Positions 21,711-61,994 of a stretch of 64,000 nucleotides of DNA are shown one piece after another; position 1 is the first letter of the stretch, and the number at the start of each line of letters is the position of its first letter. The notes beneath the pieces were generated by a model. That model searched no databases. It was not told the DNA's origin and worked only from the letters and a program-made list of their open reading frames with translations. The position numbers and the translations under genes are program-made. Origin of the DNA: an uncultured Bdellovibrionales bacterium (GTDB lineage Bacteria > Patescibacteriota > Minisyncoccia > Moranbacterales > GWC2-37-73); the NCBI GenBank assembly GCA_964609855.1, contig CAZSTB010000006.1, positions 365 through 64,364 of the forward strand. Reading direction: 5' to 3'.

Positions 21711-21801
21711 ATTGCATTTTTTTGAATACTTGAAAAAGTGAAGTATAATGAAGATGTGGAAATGAATTAGGGAAAAATATAAAAAATAAAAATATTCAAA
21801 A

Positions 21802-22251: not shown

Positions 22252-22295
22252 AAAAATCAGTTAATTGAGAGGGAGCAATATTTTTTTAATTAAGC

Positions 22296-23054: not shown

Positions 23055-23153
23055 TGCAGATTATGCAATTTAGCATAGGATAAGATTTTAAACTAATTCA
23101 ATATAGCTAAATAAATTTAAATTGACCAATGGTCATTTATATTAAATAACGGG

Positions 23154-24977
23154 ATGTTTGGACAAAATAAAACTCAAAAACCAAAAGTTGAAACAAACGC
23201 AGTTCTTCAAAGTGAAGCGCTATATCAACGCGGAGTTGCAACTATTAAGGACCTGATAGCACCATCAGCAATGAAAATAGGTGCTGATAATCTGCAGATC
23301 GGCGAAACTTATGCTAGGACTCTGTTTATTGTTGCTTATCCAAGATATCTTCATACGAATTGGTTTTCTCCGATTATAAACATCGATTTTTCAATGGACA
23401 CATCCATGTTTGTGCACCCAATTGATACCTCAGAGATTTTGAAAAACCTGAGAAAAAGCTCAACACAGGTGCAATCGCAAATCCACATGGAGGAACAATC
23501 AGGAAAAATTCGCGATCCGATTTTGGAAACTGCCTTGCAGGATATTGAAGATTTGCGGGATAAATTAATGCAGGGAACTGAAAAGTTCTTCCGGTTTGGT
23601 TTGTATATTACCATTTATGGAAAAACGCTGGAAGAATTAAACAAAGCGAATCAGCAGATAGAATCTATTTTAGAGGCCCAGTTGGTGTACCTTAAGCCAG
23701 CGGTATTAAAGGTGGAGCAGGGCTTTGCTTCAACGTTGCCATTAGCGAATGATGAACTGGATGTTGCAAACAATCTTAACACCGCACCGCTTTCAACAAC
23801 ATTTCCATTCGTTTCAGCTGATCTCTCATCAAATGAGGGAATTCTTTATGGAATAAACCGTCATAATAACAGCTTGATTTTGTTTGATCGTTTCAAAATG
23901 GAAAATGCCAACATGGTTGTTTTTGCGAAGTCTGGAGGAGGTAAAAGTTATACCGTAAAATTAGAGATTTTCCGGTCACTGATGGTTGGTACGAATGTAA
24001 TTGTAATCGATCCTGAAAATGAATATAAATATCTTTGCGAAACAGTCGGGGGAACTTTTATTAAGCTATCTTTAAATTCTGCATTTCACCTTAACCCATT
24101 TGATCTTCCTAATGTCGGTGAGGATGAAGATCCTGAGGATGTATTACGTTCAAATATCGCTAGTCTTATCGGCTTGCTGCATATCATGCTTGGGGCAGTT
24201 ACTCCTGAAGAGGATTCGATTTTAGATATCGCAATTCGCGAAACTTATGCAATGAGAGACATTACGCCACAAAGTAATTTCAAATCCTTTAATTCCAGCT
24301 CTTTCCCTACGATGTCTGACCTATACTCGGTAATCAGAAATTCCGAAGGAGGCGAATCCGTCGCAAAACGTTTAGAGAAATACACGGAAGGTATTTTCGC
24401 TGGAGTGCTTAATCACACGACAAATGTGCAAATTTCCAATCAACTTGTAGTTTTCAATATTCGCGATCTTGAAGAACAGCTGAGACCGATTGCGATGTAT
24501 ACTATCTTGCAATTTATTTGGAATGAGATGCGCTCAACCTTGAAAAAAAGAATCGTGGTTGTCGATGAAGCATGGGTAATGATGCAGAATGATGATGCTG
24601 CCTCATTCCTCTTTGGAATTGCAAAGCGTTGTCGTAAATATTACACAGGTCTAACAACTATCACTCAGGATATTGCCGACTTCATGAGCTCACGCTATGG
24701 AAAGCCTATTGTAACAAACTCCTCGCTGCAATTATTACTAAGGCAATCTCCTGCTGCTATTGAAACCATTTCGGATACTTTTTACCTTACAGAGCAGGAA
24801 AAGTTTCTTTTACTTGAAAGTAATGTTGGAGAAGGAATTTTGTTTGCCGGAGCTAAGCATGTGGCAATCAAAGTCATCGCTTCTTATGCAGAAGATCAGA
24901 TTATTACTTCAGATCCTCGCCAGCTTGTAGAGATAGAACAAGCCAAGAAAGAATTTGATGAAGAAGAAGGCAACTAG
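23154..24977 (+). CDS. virB4: VirB4/TraE-family T4SS ATPase (Gram-positive type)
   Basis: Walker A AKSGGGKS, Walker B VVVDEAW. YPRYL...W motif upstream of the ATPase core. Confidence 0.8.
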   Translation: MFGQNKTQKPKVETNAVLQSEALYQRGVATIKDLIAPSAMKIGADNLQIGETYARTLFIVAYPRYLHTNWFSPIINIDFSMDTSMFVHPIDTSEILKNLRKSSTQVQSQIHMEEQSGKIRDPILETALQDIEDLRDKLMQGTEKFFRFGLYITIYGKTLEELNKANQQIESILEAQLVYLKPAVLKVEQGFASTLPLANDELDVANNLNTAPLSTTFPFVSADLSSNEGILYGINRHNNSLILFDRFKMENANMVVFAKSGGGKSYTVKLEIFRSLMVGTNVIVIDPENEYKYLCETVGGTFIKLSLNSAFHLNPFDLPNVGEDEDPEDVLRSNIASLIGLLHIMLGAVTPEEDSILDIAIRETYAMRDITPQSNFKSFNSSSFPTMSDLYSVIRNSEGGESVAKRLEKYTEGIFAGVLNHTTNVQISNQLVVFNIRDLEEQLRPIAMYTILQFIWNEMRSTLKKRIVVVDEAWVMMQNDDAASFLFGIAKRCRKYYTGLTTITQDIADFMSSRYGKPIVTNSSLQLLLRQSPAAIETISDTFYLTEQEKFLLLESNVGEGILFAGAKHVAIKVIASYAEDQIITSDPRQLVEIEQAKKEFDEEEGN

Positions 24978-25000: not shown

Positions 25001-25037
25001 TGGCGAATCAATTTTCAATTTTCAATTTTCAATTTTC
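25001..25037. repeat. tandem heptamer AATTTTC x5
   Basis: CAATTTTCAATTTTCAATTTTCAATTTTCAAC directly after the virB4 stop and a short palindrome TTCGCCAGCTGGCGAA. Confidence 0.6.
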
Positions 25038-25055
25038 AACGAGTCCATTTATTAC

Positions 25056-28347: not shown

Positions 28348-28710
28348 ATGATAAATTCATATAAAGACTTAATTGTTTGGCAAAAATCAAAGGATTTAGT
28401 CATTGAAATTTATAAAATTGTCGCTAATTTTCCTAAAGATGAAATTTATGGATTATCTTCCCAAATGCGCAGGTGTTCAATTTCAATACCATCAAATATC
28501 GCAGAGGGCAGATATAGGGGAACAAAAAAGGATTTCTTGCATTTTTTAAGAATTTCTTTTGGGTCAGGTGCTGAACTGGAAACACAGATATTAATTGCAA
28601 AGGAAATTTATGCTGATAGGGAAATTGATTTTGAAAAAGCTGAAAAATTATTAGAAGAAGTGATGAAGATGTTAAATGTTATGATTAAGAATTTAAATCC
28701 TAAAAGCTAA
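28348..28710 (+). CDS. four-helix-bundle protein (23S rRNA intervening-sequence protein family, TIGR02436)
   Basis: YKDLIVWQKSKDLVIEIYKI...SQMRRCSISIPSNIAEG...FLHFLRISFGS signature. Confidence 0.8.
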   Translation: MINSYKDLIVWQKSKDLVIEIYKIVANFPKDEIYGLSSQMRRCSISIPSNIAEGRYRGTKKDFLHFLRISFGSGAELETQILIAKEIYADREIDFEKAEKLLEEVMKMLNVMIKNLNPKS

Positions 28711-31904: not shown

Positions 31905-31946
31905 GAGTTTAAACAAATTGGATTCTTAATCCAATTTGTTTTTTTT
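31905..31946. terminator. bidirectional terminator overlapping the xer 3' end
   Basis: AAACAAATTGGATT-loop-AATCCAATTTGTTTTTTTT. Confidence 0.55.
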
Positions 31947-32846
31947 ACCGTGAAACTTCTGATGAACATTTTTGAGTTGTTCGTTGGTGACATGTGTATA
32001 GATTTGAGTCGTGGTTATGGAAGAATGTCCGAGCATGGTTTGCACGCTGCGAATATCCGCGCCATTGGCAAGCAGGTCTGTTGCAAAGCTGTGTCTAAGG
32101 GTATGTGGATGCACATCTTTAACGATGCCAGCAATGGCAGCGTAATTCTTTACGATTCTTTGAATGGAGCGTGTTGTCAGTCTTTTGGTTTCCATTTCTG
32201 AATGTTTGCCTTGCGAATAACGGATGAAAAGTGCGGGATCAATGTCTGTGCGTTTTGCTAAATATTTTTGCAGCGCAATTTTGGCACTTTCTGAAATAAA
32301 GACGATTCGAATCTTATCGCCTTTTCCTCGGACGCTAAATTCTTGTCGTTCGATGTTTATTTGATCCCTGTTGATGTTTATCAGTTCGCTTACACGTAGT
32401 CCCGCAGAAAAAAGCAGTTCCAAAATAGCCTTATCTCTGAGAGACTTCAAATCTTGCTTGGAAGCTGCATTTAAAAGTCTGGCAACTTCCTCACCATCAA
32501 GGAATTCAATTTCATGGGAGGGATTTTTCCCAACTTCGATTTTTTCGCAAGCTAAACTTTTGATATCACGCTTGGAAAGATATTTCAAAAAACTCCTGAT
32601 TGCAATGATATGATAATTTTGTGTAGATCTTTTAAGGTTTGCGCCTTTAGTGTCGGTCAGGCGATTAAGATAAATGCGATACGCATGGACCAGCTCATTG
32701 GTAATATTTTCCGGGCGGTCAATCTTTGCCCAAGTAAAAAACCGCTTGAGATAATGATGATAGTTCTCAATTGTTTTTTGCGAACGTGTGCGTTCGATTT
32801 CCAGGTATTCCAAGAATTCTATTAAAAGTGTGTTTAAGTTTTGCAT
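31926..32846 (-). CDS. tyrosine site-specific recombinase (XerC/XerD family)
   Basis: C-terminal HTLRHSFATDLLANGADIRSVQTMLGHSSITTTQIYTHV with the catalytic R...HxxR...Y. Confidence 0.8.
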   Translation of the reverse strand: MQNLNTLLIEFLEYLEIERTRSQKTIENYHHYLKRFFTWAKIDRPENITNELVHAYRIYLNRLTDTKGANLKRSTQNYHIIAIRSFLKYLSKRDIKSLACEKIEVGKNPSHEIEFLDGEEVARLLNAASKQDLKSLRDKAILELLFSAGLRVSELININRDQINIERQEFSVRGKGDKIRIVFISESAKIALQKYLAKRTDIDPALFIRYSQGKHSEMETKRLTTRSIQRIVKNYAAIAGIVKDVHPHTLRHSFATDLLANGADIRSVQTMLGHSSITTTQIYTHVTNEQLKNVHQKFHGKKNKLD

Positions 32847-34592: not shown

Positions 34593-36704
34593 ATGAATTG
34601 GATTTTCAAAAACAAAAACAAAAGAGCAAAGACGCTGCTTGTCGTCTTGTTTTTGGCGTTTGGATTCTCTTTTGTTAGTTTCGATGATGCGAAAGCGGCA
34701 GGTATTTGCGAAAGCGGCAGTACTGAAAAAACTTGCGAATGCTTTAATGGAAGTGCTTCATTAAGTTTTTTTCCGGCCGGACACAATATAAGTGATTTTA
34801 ATGCCCAGTTGACTACAGGTTTTTGTCATCAAGAATCTTGCATGCAATACTGCATGTTTAAATTTCCAGCTACGACTGCAGTTAAATATGACGGGGGAAC
34901 ATTTGGAACAAGCTCAATAAAAAATAGTTCAAGCGCTGTTATATCCGCACCCTCATTATCAGAGCAAGTTTGCGGCGGAACATTGAGCATGTTTAACCCT
35001 TCAACATGGCTGCAATGTGCGCTAATCATGGTTTTGCAACTCGTCGGCTATCTGTTCGCAATAGCGGCGACACTTTTTGCATGGGCAATTGATCCCTCAA
35101 ACGTTTCCGGGCCTAATGGTATTTTGGAAAAACAAGCCATCAAGGACGTGTGGATTATGGTTCGCGATCTTTTGAATATGACCTTTATTTTGATCTTACT
35201 TTTCTCGGCTTTCTGCACAATTTTTCAAATCGATAACTGGGGTCTTAAAAAAGTTTGGCTCAATATTTTGATAAACGCCCTCTTGGTAAATTTTTCCTTT
35301 CCAATTGCGCGTTTTATTATCGATATTTCAAACGTAACTTTTTATTATTTTGTAAAGCATTTGTTCGCATCTACTGGAACCTCAACTGTTACTGGTTCAA
35401 CAATCTTTTCAAGTTTTGCATCCACATCTGGAATCGGCGATTTGTTGCAGCCTGATAAATATGCGGACCATGCAATTCCATATCTGATTGCATCGATAAT
35501 TTTCGTTTTTATTTTCGGAATGACGCTGCTTATTATCGGAGCATTATTCATTGTTCGCCTTGTCGCGCTGGCAATGCTTATCATGTTTTCCCCGATCGGT
35601 TTTGTGGGTTATATTTTTCCTGAAAGTGCCAGTTATGCCAACAAGTGGTGGAAAAATCTTTTTAGCTACTCTTTCTTTGCGCCGATTATGATTTTTGTTA
35701 TGGCGATTTCGCTGCGAATCATGCAAGCCTTGCAGGCGGAGAATATGAGTTCGATGCAAGCGATCAGTGGAGTTAACGCCGTTTCAGATCAACAAGGTTG
35801 GGTGGCAAATGCAGCATTTTACACAATTCCGATTATCATTCTCTGGGGTGGAATGGGAATTGCAAAATCCTCAGGCATTGCCGGAGCGGACACCGTCGTC
35901 AATTCTGTGAAAAAAGGAGGAAAATGGGCTGCCACAAATCTTTCTGGTTACGGCTATATGAAAAAGAATTATGATGCTTACGCTGGAGCCAGAAAGAAAC
36001 GCGTAGAGGAAAAAGATAAGAAACGCTGGGGCGGCAAATTTGGCGATGGCGTAAATGATAAGCAAGATAAGCTATTGGCCAAGCTAGGCTCTGAAGCTGC
36101 GATGAAGCGATACAATAAGAGAAAAGAGACAGGAAATAAGGATGATATTAAAGATGGCGTTGAGGGAGCAGAAAGTAGAACTGCTGATGAATTAAAATCA
36201 CAAATCAAGACTTCTATGAACTCCACAACGCCACTGAGCGATAAGGAAAAAATGGATTATGCTATAAATGCTAAGTTGGCATTAAATCGTGGAGCTAAAT
36301 ATGAATCTGGATTTGAAGAAGATCTTAAGGCTGACATGAAAAACAATTTAACAACTGATTCTAGATTCGCCACATTGCATGCAAGTACTGTGGATCTCGC
36401 AAGGGCAGAGATGAATTTCAATAATCATCCAAAAAATCCTCCAACTGCAACTGGAACTAGTGCAAGCGCGCAGCGAAATCATCAAATTCAAATGGCGAAA
36501 TGGACTGCAGATAGAACCTTGCTGAAAGAAGCACATGAAAATGCAAAGAAGAAAGTCGAGTCAGATGAGAAAAAGATCATTCAAAGCGAAAAAACAAAGC
36601 ATCTCGACAACTTAAGAAAAGCAATTAAAGATGCCGAGGAGGTTGGAAAGATAAATAAACCGGCTCCAACTCCTGCACCTCCTGGCCCGACTCCAACACC
36701 ATAA
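34593..36704 (+). CDS. TrbL/VirB6-like polytopic T4SS membrane protein with Cys-rich N-terminal ectodomain and Pro-rich C-terminal tail
   Basis: Signal peptide plus Cys-rich region, then 6-7 TM helices. Charged Lys/Glu-rich tail ending PAPTPAPPGPTPTP. Promoter GAAAATATGCTATAAT at 34541-34557. Confidence 0.5.
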   Translation: MNWIFKNKNKRAKTLLVVLFLAFGFSFVSFDDAKAAGICESGSTEKTCECFNGSASLSFFPAGHNISDFNAQLTTGFCHQESCMQYCMFKFPATTAVKYDGGTFGTSSIKNSSSAVISAPSLSEQVCGGTLSMFNPSTWLQCALIMVLQLVGYLFAIAATLFAWAIDPSNVSGPNGILEKQAIKDVWIMVRDLLNMTFILILLFSAFCTIFQIDNWGLKKVWLNILINALLVNFSFPIARFIIDISNVTFYYFVKHLFASTGTSTVTGSTIFSSFASTSGIGDLLQPDKYADHAIPYLIASIIFVFIFGMTLLIIGALFIVRLVALAMLIMFSPIGFVGYIFPESASYANKWWKNLFSYSFFAPIMIFVMAISLRIMQALQAENMSSMQAISGVNAVSDQQGWVANAAFYTIPIIILWGGMGIAKSSGIAGADTVVNSVKKGGKWAATNLSGYGYMKKNYDAYAGARKKRVEEKDKKRWGGKFGDGVNDKQDKLLAKLGSEAAMKRYNKRKETGNKDDIKDGVEGAESRTADELKSQIKTSMNSTTPLSDKEKMDYAINAKLALNRGAKYESGFEEDLKADMKNNLTTDSRFATLHASTVDLARAEMNFNNHPKNPPTATGTSASAQRNHQIQMAKWTADRTLLKEAHENAKKKVESDEKKIIQSEKTKHLDNLRKAIKDAEEVGKINKPAPTPAPPGPTPTP

Positions 36705-36717
36705 TAAAAAAACAAAA

Positions 36718-37125
36718 ATGAGTAATAATTTGAGCGCATTGGAAGAATTTGATGCGCAAAGAAAAATTGAGATGCCGCATCTTTTGTATTCGGCAACTGA
36801 CCTGGTAGCGAAAAAAAATATCGCCTATGTTGTGTTGGCAAAAAAAGAAAAAGAGATACTGCTCATTAGTCCAGCTGGCTTCGGCGAGGCAGCTGTTGTC
36901 GCAGGCTTCAGCGAAAAAAATATTGAACATTTTGCCAAGTTTGCATCAAAGGAATGCAAAGAAAGAATGTTTGAAGTAATCAAGAATGATCTGCTTGCTA
37001 AGGATATTTGGGAAATCGCAGAGGCGATGGACGATGATTTAGGCAGAGATTCCAAGTCGCATCGCCAAAGAGTAAGAAAAGTGTTGCAATATATTTATAA
37101 TAATCAAACAGTTTTTCATTTTTGA
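36718..37125 (+). CDS. hypothetical protein
   Basis: 135 aa, no motif. Tightly packed after the virB6-like gene. Confidence 0.4.
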   Translation: MSNNLSALEEFDAQRKIEMPHLLYSATDLVAKKNIAYVVLAKKEKEILLISPAGFGEAAVVAGFSEKNIEHFAKFASKECKERMFEVIKNDLLAKDIWEIAEAMDDDLGRDSKSHRQRVRKVLQYIYNNQTVFHF

Positions 37126-39119
37126 TATCTATGGACTTTAATTTTGCGCAAAACAATTCAGCATCTCAAAAAACTGGTTCCTTGGAGCAGTCTTTTGTCG
37201 GCGTTGTGGAGAATGAAAAACAACGACTGGCGACTGGATATGCAGCTGTTGTTGAAGAAATTCAAGCAAAAAGAAACAAGGAAAATGCAGGTGCGCAAAT
37301 ATTTCCCGCTTCAGTTGCATCTTTACATCCTGATGTTGTTGATTTTTTACTAAATTTTGATTTGGTTTCAGTTTATGATGATATCGCCAAACAAAACAAC
37401 TTGGATGAGAAAGGCCGCAGTAGCTTGCCGCAAATAGTTTGGAAGCTTGTTAGAGAAGGAAATTGGAACGCCTTGGATGAAACGTTAGAAGCTAAAATTC
37501 CCTTGGTGCATTCCGTACATGTAAATGTCGCTAACCTTTTGCAGCAAAATATTTTAGCAAAAGTGAAAGCTCTGTCTGAAAAACCGGTTTCCAGAAAAGG
37601 TATTATCAGCGAAGCTACGAAGAAAATCGTAAGCATTCCGCTGAAGAAAGCTTTGCTTGATTATCCGAAACTTGGAGAGCAAAATGTGACAATCAGTCAG
37701 ATTGAGCTGAAATATTTTCCTACGCCTGTCAGGCCTTCGATTAAGAATTGGATTACAGACTTTCATGATCAGATGGGGGCAATTAAACATTCTCCAATTG
37801 ATCGCGGAAACTATTTGTTCCACAGCGAAAATGGAAAAAAACTTACCTCTCTGGAGCGGCAGAAGCTTTCAATGATTTTGAAAAGTTTAGATGAAGATAC
37901 GAATCTGGATATTGATGCTGAAGCGCAAGTCCTTATATTTGAAATAGAAAAACCGCAAATAAATCCAGTGGCGAATGATCGATATAAAACTGTGGTGAGT
38001 GATAATTTTACTGATGTGCAGAAAAACGTTCCAGCTGAACAGTTAATAAGTCGACCAGTATTGGATTTTGGACAAAGGCAGCAAACTATTGAGCAGGAAA
38101 AGCAGTCTGAAATAGAAAATAGTGAGGAATTACTAAAATCCCGCGAAGAAAAATTGAATAATCTTGGTAAATTTTTTGGCGAAAAAGCTGGCTTGCAGCC
38201 AGAAGTAAAAACGCCTGCGGATGATAACTTAGAACAGGTAGCTAAACCGCAAGTCAAGCCGTTGTCGTCAGAGCAGGCTACAGGCGGCCTTAAGGCTGCG
38301 TTAAATTTCTTTAAATTAAATAAAGTTAAAAATTCCAAATCGGAAGAAAGAGAAAACCAAGTTCCAACTGCGGAAATTATGCAAAAGGATTTATTCAAGT
38401 TGCCAACCTCGAAGCCGCAATTGGGGACTGAAGAATATAATGTAAGAAAAAGTTTTGTTGAGCAGAGTAATGTGGAAGAAAAAAAAGCTCAAGAGCTGCC
38501 GTTTCAAAGCGATATGATTTCAAATGTTAACAATGTAAAATTTTCAAACAGCGACAATATACATTTTTCATCGCCTCAGAAACTGCCTGCAGAGGAAAAA
38601 TTCGCCGCGCCTGCGAAAATGAGCGCCCCTAATTTTGCCTCCAACAGTATGGCATACGTTAGGCCTACAGCAACTTTCAAAGTTCAAGATGTTCCAGCTG
38701 TAGAGCCAGAAATTGTCACCCCTGCGCCAACTTTAGCAAGTCCGCAAATTAAAGCTGATTACGAGATGGCATCAAATTCAAGGATAAGTTCCACCTTGTC
38801 TCCCTCAACTACTATAAGCCGTCCAATTCCAGCTCCAATTCCAACTCCTATATCGGCGCCAATTCAGCAAGTAACTTCAATGACTGAACCAGTAGTTTCT
38901 CCAGTGCCAGTATTTTCTCCGATCGTTGATCTTAAGCGAGACTCAGCGCCAGTCCCCGTTGAAACAACTCAGCAAATTAGCAGCGAAGAGCATTCCATTA
39001 AAAAGGCGACTCCTGCAATCGCAAGAAATCCATTCAGAATCGTTCCAAGAAATTACTCAGAGGGAATTGAAGATGAAAAAATTTCAGCTCCAAAAAATGT
39101 TGTTAATCTAAAAGAATAA
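37122..39119 (+). CDS. hypothetical large protein with low-complexity Pro/Ser-rich C-terminus
   Basis: 665 aa. ATGA overlap with the previous gene. No TM and no catalytic motif. Confidence 0.5.
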   Translation: MISMDFNFAQNNSASQKTGSLEQSFVGVVENEKQRLATGYAAVVEEIQAKRNKENAGAQIFPASVASLHPDVVDFLLNFDLVSVYDDIAKQNNLDEKGRSSLPQIVWKLVREGNWNALDETLEAKIPLVHSVHVNVANLLQQNILAKVKALSEKPVSRKGIISEATKKIVSIPLKKALLDYPKLGEQNVTISQIELKYFPTPVRPSIKNWITDFHDQMGAIKHSPIDRGNYLFHSENGKKLTSLERQKLSMILKSLDEDTNLDIDAEAQVLIFEIEKPQINPVANDRYKTVVSDNFTDVQKNVPAEQLISRPVLDFGQRQQTIEQEKQSEIENSEELLKSREEKLNNLGKFFGEKAGLQPEVKTPADDNLEQVAKPQVKPLSSEQATGGLKAALNFFKLNKVKNSKSEERENQVPTAEIMQKDLFKLPTSKPQLGTEEYNVRKSFVEQSNVEEKKAQELPFQSDMISNVNNVKFSNSDNIHFSSPQKLPAEEKFAAPAKMSAPNFASNSMAYVRPTATFKVQDVPAVEPEIVTPAPTLASPQIKADYEMASNSRISSTLSPSTTISRPIPAPIPTPISAPIQQVTSMTEPVVSPVPVFSPIVDLKRDSAPVPVETTQQISSEEHSIKKATPAIARNPFRIVPRNYSEGIEDEKISAPKNVVNLKE

Positions 39120-39297
39120 AAGGTATTGTATCCCAGGGCAGAGCTCTGGACTCCCTTGGGCCCACGCAGCCCGTCTCGCCCGAGGCTTTGCCGAGGGGGA
39201 CAGAGCTGTGAGGTGCCTGCCCTGTCTACCGATAGGCAGGCGGTAGGCAGGGAAATGGAATATTAATTTTCATTTCGCTCGCTTCGTTTGATAATAA
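39113..39297 (-). repeat. structured intergenic repeat / candidate ncRNA, diverged copy C (GC-rich core)
   Basis: Minus-strand 5' module AAACGAAGCGAGCGAAATGAAAAT... and 3' end ...AATACCTTTTATT match copies A and B. The 120-nt core is about 65% GC. Confidence 0.55.
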
Positions 39298-39391
39298 AAC
39301 AATATCTTTGATTTGAGATTTTTTATCAAGTGTTTGCAAGGGAGAAAATCGACTGCTTGAGCGAGAAAGGTGCTTTAAGTTAAATATAAGA

Positions 39392-39676
39392 TTGGAAAGT
39401 ATGCTTGAATTCATAAATATAGCACAGGCCGGAATTATTAGTGATGCACCCAGTGTTTCGAGTCTGGGAATTAAGATTTTAAATTTTTTGTTGTCAGTAG
39501 TTGGATTTTTTGCTATAATTTCTTTAGTGTTGGCAGGGATAAAATACTTTTTTGCACTTGGTGATAAGAAGCAAATTGAAAATGCAAAAAATGCCGCGAC
39601 GGCTGCCGTTTGGGGAATTGCGCTTGCGATGGGAGGAATGATCCTGATAAGGTTTATTGGACAATTTTTTCAATAG
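39392..39676 (+). CDS. T4SS pilin-like (TrbC/VirB2-like) small protein
   Basis: 94 aa. Two-helix module with KYFFALGDKKQIENAKN...IG motif. Confidence 0.45.
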   Translation: MESMLEFINIAQAGIISDAPSVSSLGIKILNFLLSVVGFFAIISLVLAGIKYFFALGDKKQIENAKNAATAAVWGIALAMGGMILIRFIGQFFQ

Positions 39677-39754
39677 CACTAGCGAATGATAATATAACGA
39701 GATTTTGGGAAAAAAATATATAAAAAATAAAAACTAGGAAAGGAGGTGTAATTT

Positions 39755-40108
39755 ATGAACATTGTTAAAAAATTTGTATACGGAATCGCTTCAATTATCG
39801 TGGTGTTGCCGACAACCGTGGGAGCTCAACTTCAGACACCTGAAGGAACAGGTCTTCCAGCGGGAAGTGTGATAAATATCATAACCAATGGAATGAATTA
39901 TCTTTTGATTCTCGTTGGTGTTCTTGGAGTTATCGGATTCGTTATCGCTGGTATCATTTATTTGACTGCAGCTGGCGACGAAGATCAGATAGAAAGAGGA
40001 AAGAGAACTATGATCAATTCTATCATTGGAATCATCGTAGCGCTTTTGGGAATCATTGTTTTGACAGCCGTAAAAAGTATGCTTGGGGGAACTGATAAAA
40101 CTTTCTAG
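39755..40108 (+). CDS. T4SS pilin-like small protein
   Basis: Strong RBS AGGAAAGGAGGT. Motif IYLTAAGDEDQIERGKR...IIG. Confidence 0.5.
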   Translation: MNIVKKFVYGIASIIVVLPTTVGAQLQTPEGTGLPAGSVINIITNGMNYLLILVGVLGVIGFVIAGIIYLTAAGDEDQIERGKRTMINSIIGIIVALLGIIVLTAVKSMLGGTDKTF

Positions 40109-40129
40109 TTCTGCAAGTTACATTTTGTA

Positions 40130-40166
40130 CAAGCAAAAAACAACCTTAAGGGTTGTTTTTTGCTTG
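40130..40166 (+). terminator. rho-independent terminator
   Basis: CAAGCAAAAAACAACC-TTAA-GGGTTGTTTTTTGCTTG. Confidence 0.6.
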
Positions 40167-40328
40167 CGTAAAAATTATAAGACCTATATTTATATATACA
40201 CTTTTACTGAAAATATGCTATAATGAATATGAAAATATCTTAAAAATTTATTCTTCCGTTGTTTTTTGATCAGCTACGCTTGCTATTGAATTAGAAAGAT
40301 AGCTTTTGAAAAAAAATAAAAAATAAAA

Positions 40329-40784
40329 ATGAAAGTACAAAATAAGATTCTGTCACTAATTGTTTTCTCATTTGTCTTTTTTGCGCAAGTCCTGCCAGTA
40401 CTTGCTGGTCCAGAATGGAATGCATCAGTCGGGCCAGATGGAAATGTGGGTTTTCAAATAGGTACACAACAGGGTCTTAATGCTCTCAATGGAAATAATG
40501 CTGACGCAGCAATGAATAATCCATATGGCTTGCCGGGTGGAAGTATTTTGGATATAATTTCAAACCTCTTGTTTTGGCTGCTGGCTATTTTTTCCGTACT
40601 AGGAATCATTGGCTTTTTGATTTCTGGAATCTTGTATCTTCTGGCTGGTGCGGATGAGGATAATGCAAAAAAGGGAAAAGAGGGCATGAAAGCTTCAATT
40701 ATTGGAATCATTGTCGGTCTTTCAGGTTATGTTATCATGCAGGCAGTTGGAATATTTTTACGCGGAGATACGACAATGTTCTAA
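40329..40784 (+). CDS. T4SS pilin-like protein
   Basis: Signal peptide. Motif LYLLAGADEDNAKKGKE...IIG. Promoter GAAAATATGCTATAAT at 40210-40226. Confidence 0.5.
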   Translation: MKVQNKILSLIVFSFVFFAQVLPVLAGPEWNASVGPDGNVGFQIGTQQGLNALNGNNADAAMNNPYGLPGGSILDIISNLLFWLLAIFSVLGIIGFLISGILYLLAGADEDNAKKGKEGMKASIIGIIVGLSGYVIMQAVGIFLRGDTTMF

Positions 40785-40840
40785 AGTAGATTGATTAGGT
40801 TTGATTTAGATAAATACAGTAATCAGTTTTTATAACAAAA

Positions 40841-41710
40841 ATGAAAAATAAAAGCGCATATTTATTTGTTGGCATTTTCCTATTCTCAGGCTTACTTTTT
40901 TTTGGAGAAAGTGAAAAAGCTAACGCTCAAGCATTTTCTGGATCATATTCATACTCTGAATGCAAAAGTGATGGTGGAAGTGAGGCGTATTGCAGTCAAT
41001 TTAGCGGTGCACCTCAATCTTCCACAAATATCAGCAATGCATCCGCAGGAAGTTGCCGTTTCAATAGTGATTGCGGAAATAATTTTACGTGTTATCAGGA
41101 TACCTGTATGGATGATGCAACCTATCAGGAAAATGTTTCTTGGATTAATCGTACTGGTAACGCCGTGTCGCAGGTACTAACTCCTGGTGGGTCAATATTT
41201 GATGATGGTACGAATTCTACCTCTTCTTCATCAGGTGGGGAGCTAACGATGATTGCTTATGATATTAATGGTAACCCTGTTTTTGATCCTGACCAATATG
41301 CTGGAGCAGGAAATACGAATTCTAATATTGTTAACAATAACAACAACAGTAATAATACTGGATCCGGCAATACTAACGGAATTCAAACAGCAAAATGCAG
41401 CGGGGCAAATTTTACGGAAATCGGGGGAATCTGTTTTCCTGTAGACACAGGCATGCCGAATCCAGAATTCGGAATAGTCCAGATTATTGGCAATCTCTTT
41501 TCCTGGTTAATGGGTTTATTTTCCGTGCTTTCCTTGGCGGCTTTTGTGATATCCGGAATTCAGTATGTCACATCCGCTGGAGATTCTGGCCAAGCAGAGA
41601 CTGCTAAAAAGAACGCCCTAAATGCTGTTTTAGGAATTATTGTGGGTTTCTCTGGTTTTGTTATTGTTCAAGCTGTGAATTATGCACTAGAGGGGCAAGG
41701 TTTCTTTTAA
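40841..41710 (+). CDS. Cys-rich secreted protein fused to C-terminal T4SS pilin-like module
   Basis: Motif QYVTSAGDSGQAETAKKNA...GII. N-terminal Cys-rich region and an Asn-rich tract. Confidence 0.5.
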   Translation: MKNKSAYLFVGIFLFSGLLFFGESEKANAQAFSGSYSYSECKSDGGSEAYCSQFSGAPQSSTNISNASAGSCRFNSDCGNNFTCYQDTCMDDATYQENVSWINRTGNAVSQVLTPGGSIFDDGTNSTSSSSGGELTMIAYDINGNPVFDPDQYAGAGNTNSNIVNNNNNSNNTGSGNTNGIQTAKCSGANFTEIGGICFPVDTGMPNPEFGIVQIIGNLFSWLMGLFSVLSLAAFVISGIQYVTSAGDSGQAETAKKNALNAVLGIIVGFSGFVIVQAVNYALEGQGFF

Positions 41711-41734
41711 GATAGTTTTTATTGGAAGAATTTT

Positions 41735-42616
41735 ATGAAATTAAAAAAACTTTTATTTCTTAGCTTATTTCTTAGCTTATTTTTTGTTGGAAATGGCGTA
41801 GAAGCCGTAACTGAGTGCGAAACCGCCGGCGGAATTTGCAGTATTTTTTCGAATATGACTTGCGAATCCAGGCATTTATTGGGAAAGGAAGATATGGTAA
41901 CCACAAATCTCTCGTGCAACAATAGTGCAGCAAGTTGTTGCATGCCAAAAGTTGCCACTCCTGCAATAACAGCACCAGTTACAACACCAACCACACCAAC
42001 TACAACTCCAGTTACAACCCCAGTTACAGCCCCAACCATTAACACTCCAACTACAAATACCCCAACTGTTAATCCTCCAGTTACGGCTAATGCAAATGCT
42101 TGTTCAGATCTTGAGTATTTAGGTCGCGATGGAAATTGTTATCCCAAGGAGAATCTAAATATAGAAAATGGCAATTTATGTTCCGATATTGAGTATCTAG
42201 GTCTCGACGGAAATTGCTACCCAAGGGAAAACTTAAACATTGTAAATGAAAATAATAACACTTTCCCCGGTGTGCCTAGTGGCGGCGCTCAGACTGCCAA
42301 ATGCGGCAATGGCTTCTATGAGAAAGGAAATGTTTGTTTTCCAACACAAACGGGACTGCCAAGTCCAGAAAACGGTGTAGTTCAAATTCTCAGTAACCTT
42401 TTTTCCTGGTTAATGGGTTTATTTACCATACTTTCGTTGGCAGCTTTCACGGTTTCTGGCATTCAATATGTAATTTCTGCTGGAGATTCAGGTTTGGCTG
42501 AAACTGCCAAGAAAAACGCAGTCAATTCAATTATTGGAATTGCAGTGGGACTTTCTGGATTTATCATCGTACGGGCCATAAATGCGGCACTTACTGGGCA
42601 GGGTTTTTTCTTTTAG
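41735..42616 (+). CDS. Cys-rich, Thr/Pro-linker secreted protein fused to C-terminal T4SS pilin-like module (paralog of 40841-41710)
   Basis: Internal tandem duplication CSDLEYLGRDGNCYPKENLNIENGN / CSDIEYLGLDGNCYPRENLNIVNEN. PTTPTTTPVTTPV linker. Motif QYVISAGDSGLAETAKKNA. Confidence 0.5.
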   Translation: MKLKKLLFLSLFLSLFFVGNGVEAVTECETAGGICSIFSNMTCESRHLLGKEDMVTTNLSCNNSAASCCMPKVATPAITAPVTTPTTPTTTPVTTPVTAPTINTPTTNTPTVNPPVTANANACSDLEYLGRDGNCYPKENLNIENGNLCSDIEYLGLDGNCYPRENLNIVNENNNTFPGVPSGGAQTAKCGNGFYEKGNVCFPTQTGLPSPENGVVQILSNLFSWLMGLFTILSLAAFTVSGIQYVISAGDSGLAETAKKNAVNSIIGIAVGLSGFIIVRAINAALTGQGFFF

Positions 42617-46547: not shown

Positions 46548-47141
46548 ATGTCGCCTATGCAAAACAATTATTTAATCCCGACAGTAATTGAAAAAACAAA
46601 TTACGGCGAGCGCGCTTATGATATCTACTCGCGCCTATTAAAGGATCGTATAATTTTTTTGGGAACGCCGATTGATGATGGTGTTGCTAATGCGATTATT
46701 GCGCAGCTTTTATTCTTGGAGCAACAAAATCCCAAGGAGGATATCAAGCTCTATATAAATTCCCCTGGAGGAGTTGTTTCCAGCGCGCTGGCGATTTATG
46801 ACACGATGCAATATGTGCGTCCAGATGTGCAGACAATCTGTATGGGATTGGCTGCTTCCGGCGCCGCACTTCTTTTGGGTGCAGGAAAAAAAGGCAAGCG
46901 TTTCGTGCTACCAAATGCCGAAGTTATGATCCATCAAGTTATGGGAGGAACGTCCGGACAAGCTTCCGATGTGGATATCCATGCAAGACATATTTTGAAG
47001 ACCAAAGATGCGCTTAATAAAATCTTAGCCAAGCATACTGGGCAAAAAATCGCTAAGGTTGAAAAGGATACTGACCGTGATTATTTCATGAGCGCCGAAG
47101 AAGCAGTTGCTTATGGAATCGTAGATAAGTTGATATCGTAG
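46548..47141 (+). CDS. clpP: ATP-dependent Clp protease proteolytic subunit
   Basis: Catalytic triad context GLAASGAA (Ser), HQVMGG (His), and Asp. Confidence 0.9.
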
Positions 47142-47145
47142 GGCA

Positions 47146-47263
47146 GGAATTAGGAATTAGGAATTAGGAATTAGGAAAATTCAAAATAAAAAACACCATC
47201 AAGGTGTTTTTTATTTTCTCTGAATTTTGCTACAACCTACAACCTAATTCCTAATGCCTAGGA
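47146..47263. repeat. GGAATTA x4 tandem heptamers, inverted partial copy, enclosing a bidirectional terminator
   Basis: GGAATTAGGAATTAGGAATTAGGAATTAGG ... AACACC-ATCAA-GGTGTT ... CCTAATTCCTAATGCCTAGG. Confidence 0.5.
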
Positions 47264-47265
47264 AG

Positions 47266-48840
47266 CTATTTAAGCATTGGCAGTAGACTCTCTCCATTCA
47301 TGTCTGCTGGTTTTGGAATTCCTAGGATTTCTAAAATTGTGGGCGCAATGTCGCTAAGTAGTCCGCCGACTTCGCTTTGTTGCCTGACAATTTCTTCAGC
47401 TTTCTTTTCGCGATGATTGTCTGGGGTTATAAACCAAAAGGGGACAGGATTTGAAGAGTGTTCCGTATCAATTTGTCCGGTATGATAATTTTTGATTTCT
47501 TCAACATTCCCATGGTCGGCCGTAATCAGCACGCAACCACCCTTTTTTAAGATCGCGGGTATCAGCACGGAAAGGCTTTTGTCGATAGTTTGCACGGCGA
47601 TTGTGCAAGCAGCTTCATTCCCGGTATGACCAACCATATCGGCATTGGCGTAATTGGCAATAATAACGTCATATTTCTCCTCTTCGATGGCATCAATCAT
47701 TTTTTCAGTGAGCAAAGCAGCGCTCATTTCCGGGGCTTCATCGAATTTCGAAACGGCTGGTGAAGGAATCAGTACTCGATCTTCTCCGGGCCACGGCTCT
47801 TCTTTTCCTCCGTTGAAAAAGTAGGTAACATGCGCGTATTTTTCAGTTTCGGCGATTCGAAGTTGTTTTAATTTGTTCTCACTCAAAACTTGTCCGAGGC
47901 CGCCTTCAAGAGTTGATGGCGGGAAAGCAATTCCAACTGGAAGATCTTTTTCATATTCAACCAATGTGACAAAATCAATTTTTAAGAGATCTCGCTTAAA
48001 TCCTTCAAAGCCTGGAAGCACGAAAGCTTTGGTTATTTCGCGCGCACGATCTTCGCGAAAGTTGAAAAAAATAACTGCGTCGTCATCTTTCACTGTGGCC
48101 ACAGGTTTACCGTCCTCCATTATCACTGAAGGTTCTATATATTCATCAGTAATATCTTTTGCGTAAGATTCCTGCAGGCAGGCAATCGGGTCAGTCGCTT
48201 GGATACCAGTCCCTTCTGTTAAAAGACGATAGGCTTTTTCTACGCGGTCCCAGTTGTTGTTTCGATCCATACCCCAGTTTCTACCGCTTAGGCTGGCAAT
48301 TTTTCCAATCCCAATGGATTTCAGGTGATTTTGCAGATCTTGAATTGCTTTAGTGCCTGATGTTTGCGGTGAGTCACGTCCATCAGTGAAGACATGAATA
48401 AAGACCTTTGTGAGGCCTTTTTCTTTGGCCATTTCTAAGATTGCAAAAAGATGTTCAGCATATGAATGGACACTCCCTTGTCCGATTAATCCCATAAGAT
48501 GAAGTGAGGAGTCTTTGGTTTTAACGCTTTCCATGGCCTTGGAGAGAGCCTCATTTTGAAAAAAGCTGCGATCTTGAATGGATAAAGTTATCCTGGGAAG
48601 GTTTTGATAGACAATTTTTCCTGCGCCCATTGCCATGTGACCAACTTCACTGTTGCCGGATTCGCCCCAAAAAAGTCCCACAGAGATTCCGGAAGCTTGA
48701 AGCGTGGTCATGGGATAATATTGATCTAACTTTTCTATGGTTGGAAGTTTAGTCTCTTTCAGGACATTGCCTTGGGAATTATTACTGATGCCCCATCCGT
48801 CAAGAACAACTAGTGCGACTGGTTTATACATAATTTTCAT
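47266..48840 (-). CDS. gpmI: 2,3-bisphosphoglycerate-independent phosphoglycerate mutase
   Basis: N-terminal VALVVLDGWG. Mn-binding His/Asp residues and the catalytic Ser region along the full length. Confidence 0.85.
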   Translation of the reverse strand: MKIMYKPVALVVLDGWGISNNSQGNVLKETKLPTIEKLDQYYPMTTLQASGISVGLFWGESGNSEVGHMAMGAGKIVYQNLPRITLSIQDRSFFQNEALSKAMESVKTKDSSLHLMGLIGQGSVHSYAEHLFAILEMAKEKGLTKVFIHVFTDGRDSPQTSGTKAIQDLQNHLKSIGIGKIASLSGRNWGMDRNNNWDRVEKAYRLLTEGTGIQATDPIACLQESYAKDITDEYIEPSVIMEDGKPVATVKDDDAVIFFNFREDRAREITKAFVLPGFEGFKRDLLKIDFVTLVEYEKDLPVGIAFPPSTLEGGLGQVLSENKLKQLRIAETEKYAHVTYFFNGGKEEPWPGEDRVLIPSPAVSKFDEAPEMSAALLTEKMIDAIEEEKYDVIIANYANADMVGHTGNEAACTIAVQTIDKSLSVLIPAILKKGGCVLITADHGNVEEIKNYHTGQIDTEHSSNPVPFWFITPDNHREKKAEEIVRQQSEVGGLLSDIAPTILEILGIPKPADMNGESLLPMLK

Positions 48841-49203
48841 TTAAACATTTAAGCATTTAAACATTCAAACATATGTTAAACATAAAAGCCTCAATAATAA
48901 TCTTTGTATTTATGTTTATTGCTCGTATGTTTGTATGCTCACATGACATAGTTTAGCATTCCCTGAGCCTTTTGACAAAATGGGCCTTTTCCTTTAATAT
49001 AGGGCTAGCGTATAACTAAGTTAATATTGATCGGTTCGATTTGATAAGTGATACAAATTTCCTCGCATTAAAGCGATTTTGCAATATAATTATGATTTAT
49101 TTTTCTCAGCAAAAACATAAAACTTTAGAAGAGAAAATTTAAGGTATTTTAAGATACCTTGCTTCAGTGCGTATTGCCCATCAAACGAAACGAATGAAAA
49201 AGT

Positions 49204-50730: not shown

Positions 50731-50965
50731 TGATACAATTTTGAATTTCGAATTTCCAATTTTGAATAAAATTATGATGATCAAATGTTTCAAGCATTCG
50801 AAAATTTATTTATTTGGAGTTGATTTAAAATTAAAAATTTAAAATTAAAAATTTTCGTCTTGTAATCAAGACAGTTGTGTATAACTAAATTTGCTTTATC
50901 TGCAACAAAAAGAGTATAATCGGGTAAGTGAGATAAACATAAAACTAGAAAGGATGGTGACTACT

Positions 50966-59219: not shown

Positions 59220-59831
59220 TTGCAAATGTCACTATTTAAGAAAAATGAGAAAAAGCAAATAGCTGCGGCCGATCCGACAGATGAGGAGTTGGTTTTTTTG
59301 ACCATAAAAAATCCTGATGTTTATAGTCAGCTCATCGAGCGTTATGAAGAAAAACTCTTGAGATACATTCTACGCATCTCGGCATGTTCAAAAGAAGACG
59401 CGGAAGACATTTTACAGGACGTTTTTTTGAGTGCGTACAAAAATCTTAATGATTTTGATCAGGAACTTAAATTTTCATCTTGGATTTATCGAATTACGCA
59501 TAATAAAGTTATCAGTCATTTTCGTAAGGTTACGGCTCGGCCAAAAACAACCACTTATGAAGGTGACAACCAACTTTTAAACATCTTGGCTAGCGATGAG
59601 GACATTTTTCGAGATTTGGAAAAAAAATATACTGCCGAGCAAGTCAGAGACACGATCGATAAATTAGATGAAAGATACAGAGATGTATTGGTCTTAAAAT
59701 TTTTGGAAGAAAAAGATTACAAGGAAATTTCAGATATTTTGGAAAAACCTATGGGAACAGTTGCAACCCTAATAAACAGGGCAAAAAAACAGTTTAAGGA
59801 AAAAACCCTTGAGCTTGAGAAGGATAAATAA
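59220..59831 (+). CDS. RNA polymerase sigma-70 family (ECF-type) sigma factor
   Basis: Region 2 DAEDILQDVFLSAYKNLNDFD...FSSWIYRITHN. Region 4 HTH KEISDILEKPMGTVATLINRAKKQFKE. Confidence 0.75.
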   Translation: MQMSLFKKNEKKQIAAADPTDEELVFLTIKNPDVYSQLIERYEEKLLRYILRISACSKEDAEDILQDVFLSAYKNLNDFDQELKFSSWIYRITHNKVISHFRKVTARPKTTTYEGDNQLLNILASDEDIFRDLEKKYTAEQVRDTIDKLDERYRDVLVLKFLEEKDYKEISDILEKPMGTVATLINRAKKQFKEKTLELEKDK

Positions 59832-59858: not shown

Positions 59859-60605
59859 ATGCTCAGTAAGATTTCCGCCAAGGAAATGACAACATTTAGC
59901 GATAAGATTATCAATAAGATAAAATGCGACAGTATCGAACCTGTTCCAAGGTGGCATTTCTTATTTAAAGGTTGCGCTTTTTGGGCATTATTCGTTATTT
60001 CTATGATTTTGGGCAGTCTTTCTTTCTCTGTAATTGTGCATATAGCGAGTTCTGGAGATTTCGGTTTTTTAAATCATTTGCAAGGAAACCTGATTACCTC
60101 CGCAGTTATGCTGCTGCCATATTTTTGGATTTTGTTTTTAATTTTATTCGCAATTTCTGCTTATCTAAACTGGAAGTGTACCAAGAGAGGTTATCGCTAT
60201 AAACGGCGCTGGATCGTTTTGGGTAGTTTTGCGTTAAGTATTCTCTTCGGCTATATTTTTTTTCTAATGGGGATGGCTAAGGAAGTTGATAAATTAATGT
60301 CTCGAGCGATTCCGTTTTATGATAAATCAAAACATGATGCACGCGTTGAGCTTTGGTTTCAACCTGATAGCGGTTTTCTGACGGGGAAAATTATTGAAAT
60401 AGATGAAGAAAAAGAAAAATTGATTGTTAGAGATGAGAATGGAGCAAATTGGGAAGTTGATGACCTAAATGTTAAATGGGAGAATCAAAGTCTTGAAAAT
60501 AAGGGCAAAGTCGTAAAAATTATCGGTAACCGAGATGGAGATTACAAATTTTCAGCCAAAGAAATTAGAAGGTGTAACAATTGTCAGGATGATGAGGACA
60601 ATTAG
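59859..60605 (+). CDS. membrane protein downstream of ECF sigma (candidate anti-sigma factor)
   Basis: N-terminal cytoplasmic segment, 4 TM helices, C-terminal extracytoplasmic domain. Position suggests a sigma/anti-sigma pair. Confidence 0.4.
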   Translation: MLSKISAKEMTTFSDKIINKIKCDSIEPVPRWHFLFKGCAFWALFVISMILGSLSFSVIVHIASSGDFGFLNHLQGNLITSAVMLLPYFWILFLILFAISAYLNWKCTKRGYRYKRRWIVLGSFALSILFGYIFFLMGMAKEVDKLMSRAIPFYDKSKHDARVELWFQPDSGFLTGKIIEIDEEKEKLIVRDENGANWEVDDLNVKWENQSLENKGKVVKIIGNRDGDYKFSAKEIRRCNNCQDDEDN

Positions 60606-60681
60606 TTGTTTTCAAGGGAAATAAAAAACGCAGCTGGTGCTGTGTTTTTTTGTTGTCGCAAAATAGCGTTATGTAAGTTTG

Positions 60682-60824
60682 TTTATTGTCGAACGAAGTC
60701 GAGCGAAATGAAAATGAATTTTCGTTTCCGAGCGAGTGATGACATCAAAAGGTTTAATACCTCGCGGCGGGCCGCGAAAACCCAGGGGGTTTGGGGCTTG
60801 CCCCGGGGTTAATACCTTTTATTT
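60682..60824 (+). repeat. structured intergenic repeat / candidate ncRNA, copy B
   Basis: About 90% identical to 13491-13633. ORF-track entries 60606-60812 and 60736-60960 overlap it and are judged spurious. Confidence 0.7.
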
Positions 60825-61994
60825 AACAATTTCAATTTTTGCTAAAGTTTGCTTGACCAATGCGGGAATATCCAAGGCTTTCTCTGCTTCCAATACTTCA
60901 AGAATTTTGGAACGTGTTTCAGGTTTTTTGGGCATTAGTCGCGTGCAACAATCGTCATGAGGCAAGATCGAGATTTCATAAGTTCCGATGTCTTTCGCTT
61001 TCTGCATTATTTCTTCCTTGTCTAAGCCGATAAGTGGTCTAAAGATCGGAAGTGTTGCGGCTTCACTTACGGTTAAGATATTTTCCAAGGTCTGAGAAGC
61101 AACTTGGCCGATGGAATCTCCAGTGATAAGCGCCATGCAGCGTTCTCTCTTAGCAAGTGCCTCTGCGATTCTAATCATCATGCGGCGATAAAGAATAACA
61201 CGAAATTTTTCTGGCGTTTTCATCATGATCTCTTTTTGCACGTCTGCAAAAGGTATTAGATAAAGTTTAGTTTTACTGCCAAATTTAGCCAATTCTTGAC
61301 TAAGGCTAACCACCTTTTCTATAGATGCTTTTGATGTGAATGGAGCGCTATGAAAATGAGCATAGCGGATTTGGACTCCGCGCTTCAATATTTGCCAAGC
61401 AGCAACAGGAGAATCAAATCCACCTGAGAGCATTGCCATCGCCCTGCCTCCTGTTCCAACCGGCATTCCGCCCAGACCCTGATTTCTCATTAAGGCGACT
61501 AAGGCAAATTTATCAACGATGGTTATGCGGCATTCGCAATCAGCATGCTTCAAGCTAACGGATTTTTTTCCATCAAGTTTGTCATATATGTAGCCACCAA
61601 CTTCGCGATTAATTTGTTCACTGGTGAGAGGGAAATCCTTATTTGAGCGCTGAGTTGAAACTCTGAAAGTCTCAAACTTTTCGTCTTTTATCATTTCCCA
61701 GCAGAAAGTCTTTATGGTTTCAATATCTTGGGAAACACTGGCTACAAAGGAATAATTAGTGATTCCAAACGTATGCCTAAGCGAATTTTCAATGGCGCCA
61801 GGGTTGGAAATTCCTTTTTGGTTAAGCTTGATCAGAATTCCTCCATACATCTGTTTTACAAATTCAAAGCCTGCAGGACAAAAAAGCTCAAGTTGAGATT
61901 TGATATTCAATAGGAGTTGTTTTTCAAAATATCGGCGGTTGCCACCTTTAAGGGCAATTTCGCCATAATGACAGAGGATATGGTCTTTTTCCAT
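60819..61994 (-). CDS. thiI: tRNA 4-thiouridine(8) synthase ThiI
   Basis: THUMP-like N-terminal half. PP-loop SGGFDSPVA. Confidence 0.85.
   Translation of the reverse strand: MEKDHILCHYGEIALKGGNRRYFEKQLLLNIKSQLELFCPAGFEFVKQMYGGILIKLNQKGISNPGAIENSLRHTFGITNYSFVASVSQDIETIKTFCWEMIKDEKFETFRVSTQRSNKDFPLTSEQINREVGGYIYDKLDGKKSVSLKHADCECRITIVDKFALVALMRNQGLGGMPVGTGGRAMAMLSGGFDSPVAAWQILKRGVQIRYAHFHSAPFTSKASIEKVVSLSQELAKFGSKTKLYLIPFADVQKEIMMKTPEKFRVILYRRMMIRIAEALAKRERCMALITGDSIGQVASQTLENILTVSEAATLPIFRPLIGLDKEEIMQKAKDIGTYEISILPHDDCCTRLMPKKPETRSKILEVLEAEKALDIPALVKQTLAKIEIVK

Follow-up and report, generated by a model that had tools for sequence, protein, structure and literature searches.

Genomes of the Patescibacteria (CPR) are streamlined, about 1 Mb in size and derived from uncultivated organisms, and to our knowledge almost nothing is known of their mobile DNA apart from phages and introns. 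In the 64,000-nucleotide stretch of DNA analysed here (the window), a hairpin-rich repeat, denoted copy B, occupies the gap between a putative anti-sigma gene and thiI. The question raised by this locus is whether the repeat serves its two neighbours, encodes a product of its own, or arrived there as a mobile element.

Copy B and an empty site beside thiI

The structured repeat that the earlier note placed at 60682-60824 is real and lies where it was reported, with its end refined to 60822. We identified copy B at window positions 60682-60822 on the + strand, 141 nt from the left TTTAT through the terminal TTTAT (TTTAT-TGTCGAACGAAGTCGAGCGAAA...GGGGTTAATACC-TTTTAT), for a net insertion of 136 nt. 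Its score with covariance model R1 is 151.5 bits, it is 93% identical to a second copy in the window, copy A (over 143 nt, E = 1e-56), and the number of chance matches to its 66-nt core expected from shuffled sequence is 0. The element begins with TGTCGAACG... and ends with ...ACCTTTTAT. On one side, copy B is bordered by the stop of ORF 59859-60605, which sits downstream of an ECF sigma factor gene (59220-59831); this ORF has no Pfam match, and its 'anti-sigma' label is by position only. On the other side lies thiI (tRNA 4-thiouridine synthase; 60819-61994, - strand). The location of the 3' end of the repeat at the thiI stop was correctly described, but the two do not simply abut: the stop codon (60819-60821, read on the - strand) falls within the terminal TTTAT.

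Comparison with a second strain shows the same locus without the element. A short-read contig from another sample (L019; SRR26556853) encodes a ThiI that is 97% identical to that of the window, together with the same 248-aa neighbour, and its two flanks are 99.2% and 93.7% identical to those of the window. The gap between the anti-sigma-like gene and thiI measures 213 nt in the window and 78 nt in this contig. The empty site reads ...GGTTTAC/TTGATAATTTC (i.e., GGTTTAC/TTGAT, with the slash at the junction) and the filled site reads ...TGTTTAT[TGTCG...ATACCT]TTTAT TTAACAATTTC (i.e., TTTAT[136 nt]TTTAT), such that the single empty site carries one TTTAC, whereas the filled site has TTTAT on both sides. 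The left TTTAT (60682-60686, + strand) represents either a TAM-like pentanucleotide that served as the target or the left-hand member of a 5-bp duplication. Three outgroup loci from 78% relatives (L020-L022) retain the sigma/anti-sigma/thiI synteny and carry no element. Given that the element is missing both from L019 and from these three loci, its absence is the ancestral state and copy B an insertion; the comparison of empty and filled alleles, which rests on one empty site, indicates that this insertion is recent. The insertion target was a pentanucleotide that shared bases with the thiI stop codon (GTAAA/ATAAA when read on the coding strand). The stop is preserved by the thiI-proximal copy of the pentanucleotide, thiI is intact, and its 3' UTR now starts with the antisense element.

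In the left flank, we observed 7 mismatches to L019 in 967 nt, 4 of which lie within 10 nt of the junction (window 60672-60680); at these 4 positions, the empty allele has G or C and the filled allele has A or T. The clustering of the mismatches, together with the unequal divergence of the two flanks, suggests a recombination breakpoint at the element. A tblastx comparison of all loci with the window yielded no further orthologous empty sites, and for the proteins flanking copy A and a third copy, copy C, look-ups gave either no result or just contigs that break off at the element.

Fold, copies and genomic contexts of the family

All aligned copies share the left boundary (T)TTAT, a long imperfect hairpin at the 5' side, and a 3' end of the form AAAAGG-TTTAATACC...CC(C)TTTTAT, of which CC(C)TTTTAT is invariant (16/16 copies). 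The 5' hairpin comes in two subtypes, TGTCG...TGACA and TATCA...GATA. In copy B, the 5' domain (60687-60744, +) is of the former subtype, contains the conserved internal motifs CGAACGAAG, GAGCGAAA and CCGAGCGAG, and shows compensatory changes at alignment pairs 7:69 (GC/AU) and 12:63 (AU/GC). Its hypervariable apical hairpin, H1 (60704-60729, +), stands on a conserved GAAA/TTTC base and is deleted in two copies (L007 and L014); eight unrelated H1 sequences occur in the family, and each of them folds as a hairpin of 10-11 bp. The 3' domain (60747-60820, +) consists, according to the DNA-parameter minimum-energy fold and pair counts, of a closing stem, AAAAGG(T)/(A)CCTTTT plus TTAA/TTAA, around three GC hairpins, which together form a four-way junction. 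These hairpins are H2 (CGCGGC-GG-GCCGCG; 60763-60776, +), in which pair 91:100 appears as AU, CG and UG and pair 92:99 as GC and AU; H3 (AAACCC-AGG-GGGTTT; 60778-60792, +), supported by pair counts and the DNA-parameter fold; and H4 (GGGGC-TT-GCCCC; 60793-60804, +), in which the window copies have GC at pair 119:130 and the others have AU. In the terminal TTTAT (60818-60822, +), which includes the thiI stop codon, the T's are paired in the closing stem.

The inner hairpin modules are swapped, inserted or deleted among copies, with compensatory base changes. In most copies, TTAATACC and a second (TA)TTAATACC enclose three GC hairpins, with the family consensus CGNNGC-TT-GCNNCG for H2, CCC-AAA-GGG for H3 and RGGGC-TT-GCCCY for H4. 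Three short copies (86-98 nt) lack the entire three-hairpin module, and extra hairpin modules are present in L002, L010b and window copy C. At two sites, assemblies of the same site differ by a precise loss of the H1 tip (17-19 nt; L007 2512-2643 vs. L018 2129-2277, and L014 vs. L017), and in L001 (2167-2290) a deletion takes the right end and 15 nt of the flank; these losses reflect either hairpin-mediated deletion or assembly errors at hairpins.

Across nine full-length copies, the model with the 5' hairpin and the four-way junction has 99.5% of its cells paired and six pairs with compensatory changes. None of 500 column shuffles matched the observed score (0/500), and slid controls were 37-52% paired. 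A single long stem for the 3' domain, as proposed by RNAalifold, was rejected because it is 97.1% paired and lacks covariation in this region, compared to 99.5% and compensatory H2 and H4 pairs for the three hairpins. The four-way junction is also precisely what the + strand adopts as its minimum-energy fold under DNA energy parameters. Folded as RNA, the + strand of copy B reaches -56.4 kcal/mol (z = -3.4; 0/200 shuffles as good), compared to -39.3 kcal/mol (z = -1.5) for the - strand, and the pairs of the family show the same asymmetry, with 18 G-U cells vs. about 1 A-C cell. The element has no terminal inverted repeats: an inverted-repeat search of copy B and the L018 copy returned internal hairpins only, with the ends unmatched. 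The hairpins at the left and right ends of the element are unlike each other.

In addition to copy B, the window contains copy A (13491-13630, +), located between convergent metallophosphoesterase and DHH genes, and the diverged copy C (39116-39298, -), which was absent from the earlier note and was found by BLAST and the covariance model (22 bits, E = 0.04). Although its termini are the same, copy C is a mosaic that contains extra hairpin modules; its terminal ATAAA supplies the stop codon of a 665-aa ORF (37122-39119). Its extra modules (CCCTGCCTACCG... and CCTCGG...GAGACGGGC) also occur in L010b and L002, which are copies from another Moranbacteria lineage. Overall, the family comprises at least 17 distinct copies of 86-183 nt at 15 independent sites; 3 of the copies are in the window and 14 more in Moranbacteria contigs, and 16 distinct copies are included in the alignment and the 17th was detected with the covariance model. 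When 185,579 species genomes and JGI metagenomes were scanned for exact patterns, members of the family were confined to Candidatus Moranbacteria GW2011_GWC2_37_8 and a few related metagenome contigs, with a density of up to four copies in 14.5 kb (L013). The short-read assemblies of three samples have contigs that end some 30 nt into copies A and B, as could be expected for a multi-copy repeat.

Viral contigs gave 0 matches to two element patterns, and the 18 viral-contig matches to a 17-mer were attributed to chance, as none of them fits the covariance model. Two metagenome loci (L008 and L011) were likewise discarded as chance 21-mer matches inside a GC-rich gene. BLAST searches of plasmid and phage collections found no copy. 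Rfam 15 identified only four tRNAs in the window and no match better than E = 0.1 for copy B and the L018 copy; weak matches to the C/D-box sR16, the enterovirus cloverleaf and microRNAs were dismissed as far under the gathering scores. Our literature search did not uncover any account of repeats of this kind in CPR or Moranbacteria.

The copies occupy diverse genomic contexts. Copies A and B, L010a and L013s lie between convergent genes; L003, L018, L017 and L013a lie between tandem genes in the sense orientation; copy C, L013c and L016s lie between tandem genes in the antisense orientation; and L010b lies between divergent genes. At 2 of the 15 sites, the element is inside an ORF: in L002, it is found in a DUF192 gene, between the membrane anchor and the domain, and in L009/L013d, near the N-terminus of a 1029-aa DUF4012 protein. 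These in-ORF copies are read in one common frame (YCRTKSSEM...GVLIPFY), and the net inserts, 174 nt in L002 and 144 nt in L009, are multiples of three; the 58-residue insert in the DUF192 protein is missing from four DUF192 homologues. In the window copies, all of which are intergenic, lengths or stop codons close the open frame. Two inverted element pairs were observed, one bracketing the gene for a Host_attach-like 171-aa protein (L010, 1146-2049) and the other a GT4 glycosyltransferase gene (L013, 12181-13866); we rejected an interpretation of these pairs as composite transposons, the enclosed genes not being transposases.

The window holds further repeats and gene sets. A second family, unrelated to the element, consists of AT-rich periodic intergenic repeats (AATTT[TC]NAATTT..., ~30-75 nt) in both orientations, at 12243-12277, 12420-12482, 13408-13473, 13626-13661, 15066-15190, 25008-25039 and 50736-50855; copy A is flanked on each side by a member of this family. 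Runs of an 8-nt periodic repeat (TCATTTAAAC / ATTTAAAC) are found at 17816-17899, adjoining a tRNA gene (17720-17808), and at 48837-48880. Between clpP (46548-47141) and a phosphoglycerate mutase gene (47266-48840), the region 47145-47260 contains four tandem units of the 7-nt repeat AGGAATT and, at a distance of 60 nt, an imperfect inverted partner. A type IV secretion-like gene set (20071-24977 and 34593-42616) encodes PrgI, a TraG/VirB4-like ATPase and a TrbL/VirB6-like protein, along with several T4SS_pilin paralogues (20071-21710 and 39392-42616), including a 70%-identical duplicate (41432-41706 / 42335-42609). A 23S-rRNA-intervening-sequence/bAvd-like protein is encoded at 28348-28710 (+), with no reverse transcriptase nearby.

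Mode of insertion and competing explanations

The left pentanucleotide is TTTAT at 13 of the 15 independent sites, and ATTAT and TCTAT at the other two, so that 2/15 sites vary on the left, whereas none of the 16 copies (0/16) varies on the right. Taken by themselves, the junctions fit equally well an element-borne right TTTAT inserted next to a TTTAT target and a 5-bp target-site duplication made by an enzyme of another kind. We favour an element-borne right end and a TTTAT-like target over a true duplication, because the T's sit in the conserved stem AAAAGG/CCTTTT and the right pentanucleotide is invariant while the left one is variable. In L018, a perfect intrinsic terminator (AAAACCATCGG-N7-CCGATGGTTTT; 2100-2128) lies directly upstream of the element copy, which sits in the T-run of this terminator, indicating that T-rich terminator tails provide TTTAT targets.

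In elements of the IS200/IS605 type, the left motif is adjacent to the element and the right one is encoded by it, and excision leaves no scar. They insert beside a 4-5-nt adjacent motif without duplication, have folded ends and give rise to gene-less derivatives, the PATEs, and TTTAT is the adjacent motif of one characterised element of this type (PMC10055086). We consider it probable that copy B is a recently inserted, non-autonomous mobile element of about 136 nt, that it belongs to a dispersed, modular, hairpin-rich Moranbacteria family, and that it is mobilised in trans in an IS200/IS605-PATE-like manner. An enzyme encoded elsewhere in the genome would recognise the element as a folded single strand, presumably the + strand as written, by the shape formed by the long 5' hairpin and the 3' four-way junction, with the terminal TTTT in the closing stem. 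'Peel-and-paste' single-strand transposition next to TTTAT would follow, as in IS200/IS605, and the family would be a PATE-like derivative. This is the closest known mechanism because the element has no terminal inverted repeats, the fixed pentanucleotide on its left is the same as at its 3' end, and it has a strand-specific structure. We file the element as one that appears to work like a PATE, short of a proven member. No transposase was found among the ~50 window ORFs or the ORFs beside the other copies, where tnpA, tnpB and iscB were not seen either; the sole recombinase found in the window is of the Xer type (31926-32846, -). No longer element with the same ends is present in the ~450 kb examined. 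As to the PATE trait of an active strand on the lagging-strand template, the folded strand is, by GC skew, the G-rich strand at 10/15 sites (8/9 for type-1 copies), a bias that falls short of significance and in which gene direction is a confounding factor.

Could the element instead serve the genes between which it lies? The earlier note suggested that it may be a bidirectional transcription terminator shared by the anti-sigma-like gene and thiI. The very stable GC-rich hairpins between convergent genes at copies A and B are compatible with this suggestion, and some bacterial repeats, e.g., SPRITE, do mimic terminators (PMC10969869). However, the insertion is recent, and the convergent pair exists without it in the sister strain with the 97% identical ThiI as well as in the 78% relatives. 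Moreover, outside the element, at 60622-60651, an intrinsic-terminator-like A-tract/GC hairpin/T-tract is present on both strands (-17.8 kcal/mol, z = -3.9 for +, and -11.1 kcal/mol, z = -3.3 for -; not called by a simple terminator scan). This hairpin pre-exists and is also present in L019, which lacks the element, so that a bidirectional terminator was in place at the locus before the insertion. Within the element, no hairpin directly precedes a T-run, the 3' T-run being base-paired in the closing stem about 13 nt beyond H4, and the terminator scan detected nothing in copies A and B on either strand. Copies also lie upstream of genes, with some placed between divergent genes or, in antisense, between tandem genes and two read in-frame within ORFs; a terminator at such places would be harmful, and a range of this kind, which includes coding sequence, is incompatible with a dedicated terminator. 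Shared termination is, in our view, highly improbable. As the gene order stands, thiI transcripts would now have to cross the antisense element before reaching the terminator at 60622-60651, and a side effect of the insertion on the thiI 3' UTR, e.g., on stability, is possible. The element at thiI is most likely neutral or selfish, its consequence being at most a longer, structured thiI 3' UTR. A coding role fares worse still. The two ORFs that run through copy B on the + strand, 60606-60812 (68 aa) and 60736-60960 (74 aa; it continues antisense into thiI, which it overlaps on the opposite strand), were called artefacts at the outset, and our results agree. Both ORFs are open, and one frame of the canonical element is open end to end and read in-frame by two host genes, but a 1-nt indel between copies A and B breaks the frame and both ORFs are missing in L019. 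When conservation was checked, as the earlier note had advised, ORF 60606-60812 matched, among 1.84 billion representative proteins, only the copy-A ORF of the same window, and this match is limited to the element-derived part; a search of 5.8 billion protein clusters with the translated open frame of the canonical element gave no match. The element encodes no protein of its own, and there is hardly any chance that either ORF is a genuine small protein.

The remaining explanations concern how the element spreads and what recognises it. If it were a classical MITE, that is, a deletion derivative of an IS with a DDE transposase that makes a 5-bp TTTAT target-site duplication, its small size, multiple copies, AT-rich target and identical pentanucleotides on both sides at 13/15 sites would be accounted for. 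However, the terminal inverted repeats that define MITEs are missing, with the ends TGTCGAACG... and ...GGTATTAATACCC unrelated to each other; the terminal T's, being paired in a conserved element stem, are unlikely to derive from the target; and variation of the pentanucleotide is confined to the left side, all of which renders a MITE origin quite unlikely. Somewhat more weight is due to the possibility that the element is a functional structured RNA, either an omega-RNA-like transposon guide-RNA scaffold whose partner TnpB or IscB is encoded elsewhere or a 3'/5' UTR module with a stabilising or regulatory role, with its spread being secondary. The clearly better RNA fold of one strand and its many G-U pairs, the GCUUGC tetraloop-type hairpins in H2 and H4, and the end of the structure exactly at the 3' boundary of the element, where an omega-RNA guide would start, all point in this direction, and PATEs frequently carry omega-RNAs, which are guide-RNA scaffolds (PMC10055086). 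Nevertheless, no Rfam family matches even at E = 10, a scan of copies A and B revealed no promoter-like site, copies occur in both orientations relative to the neighbouring genes, the short forms do without the whole three-hairpin module, and neither tnpB nor iscB was seen in the examined sequence, so we judge this account unlikely. It is also rather improbable, although conceivable, that the family forms a mobile module of its own in these ultra-small bacteria, RNA-guided or unconventional in some other way, in which the entire ~140-nt element is a guide-RNA scaffold or a folded single-strand substrate for a nuclease or recombinase encoded once at another place in the genome, or that it depends on a class of enzyme so far unconnected with such repeats, such as the lone Xer-type recombinase. 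If a guide were involved, it would be supplied by the sequence past the 3' end, which in copy B is the end of thiI, and empty alleles like that of L019 would be cut and re-converted.

The family represents a datable strain-level insertion polymorphism and indicates that selfish repeats persist in CPR genomes. It accounts for recurrent contig breaks and spurious small ORFs in Moranbacteria assemblies, and for annotation purposes the element should be masked and the 68-aa and 74-aa ORFs dropped. The in-frame copies are natural examples of peptide segments gained by proteins. Identification of the mobilising enzyme would make the element a compact substrate for studies of single-strand or guide-dependent transposition in an unexplored phylum.

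Comparison with known systems

Among the known systems, PATEs are similar to the element in that they are small and gene-less, lack terminal inverted repeats and have folded hairpin ends (PMC10055086). The TTTAT fixed at the left end, the strand-specific structure and the scarless-looking empty site extend this similarity. Subterminal imperfect hairpins at both ends of one strand, a PATE trait, are present in the element, as indicated by covariation and the better + strand fold, although the two hairpins differ. Unlike PATEs, the element has no tnpA/tnpB partner that we could find, its end hairpins are dissimilar, its orientation bias is weak, and the region of its right cleavage site is base-paired in the closing stem. 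It likewise differs from IS608-type elements in that the left and right end hairpins show no mutual resemblance. With classical MITEs, the element shares its small size, non-coding nature, multiple copies and dispersal, whereas terminal inverted repeats are absent.

REP/REPIN sequences mobilised by a RAYT (Y1) are comparable with respect to their imperfect palindromes, single strands, extragenic location and a single-copy HUH enzyme acting in trans. However, REPs are units of 20-40 nt with a conserved GTAG-type head, usually in hundreds of copies, whereas the element is a composite of 90-180 nt, and a RAYT was not identified in the examined sequence. The Rickettsia palindromic elements resemble the element in their length (~100-150 nt), high degree of structure, occurrence in a reduced genome and contribution of in-frame peptide segments to genes (PMC10969869). 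They differ in belonging to another phylum and, in all likelihood, in sharing no sequence relationship with the element; in addition, the element is mostly intergenic, with 2/15 sites in ORFs, its TTTAT junction is defined and its presence/absence polymorphism is fresh. BOX of Streptococcus pneumoniae and, along with it, RUP/SPRITE, ERIC and Correia-type repeats are similar in combining conserved end modules with variable inner modules, and in their stable RNA/DNA folds, intergenic clustering and possible side effects on transcripts (PMC10969869). There is, however, no sequence similarity to these repeats, the inverted-repeat ends of Correia, RUP and ERIC are absent from the element, and so are the terminator-like hairpin and T-run of SPRITE. 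Taken together, these comparisons identify the element as a previously undescribed family of a known kind of element, which joins PATE-like ends with RPE-like in-frame insertions and BOX-like modularity.
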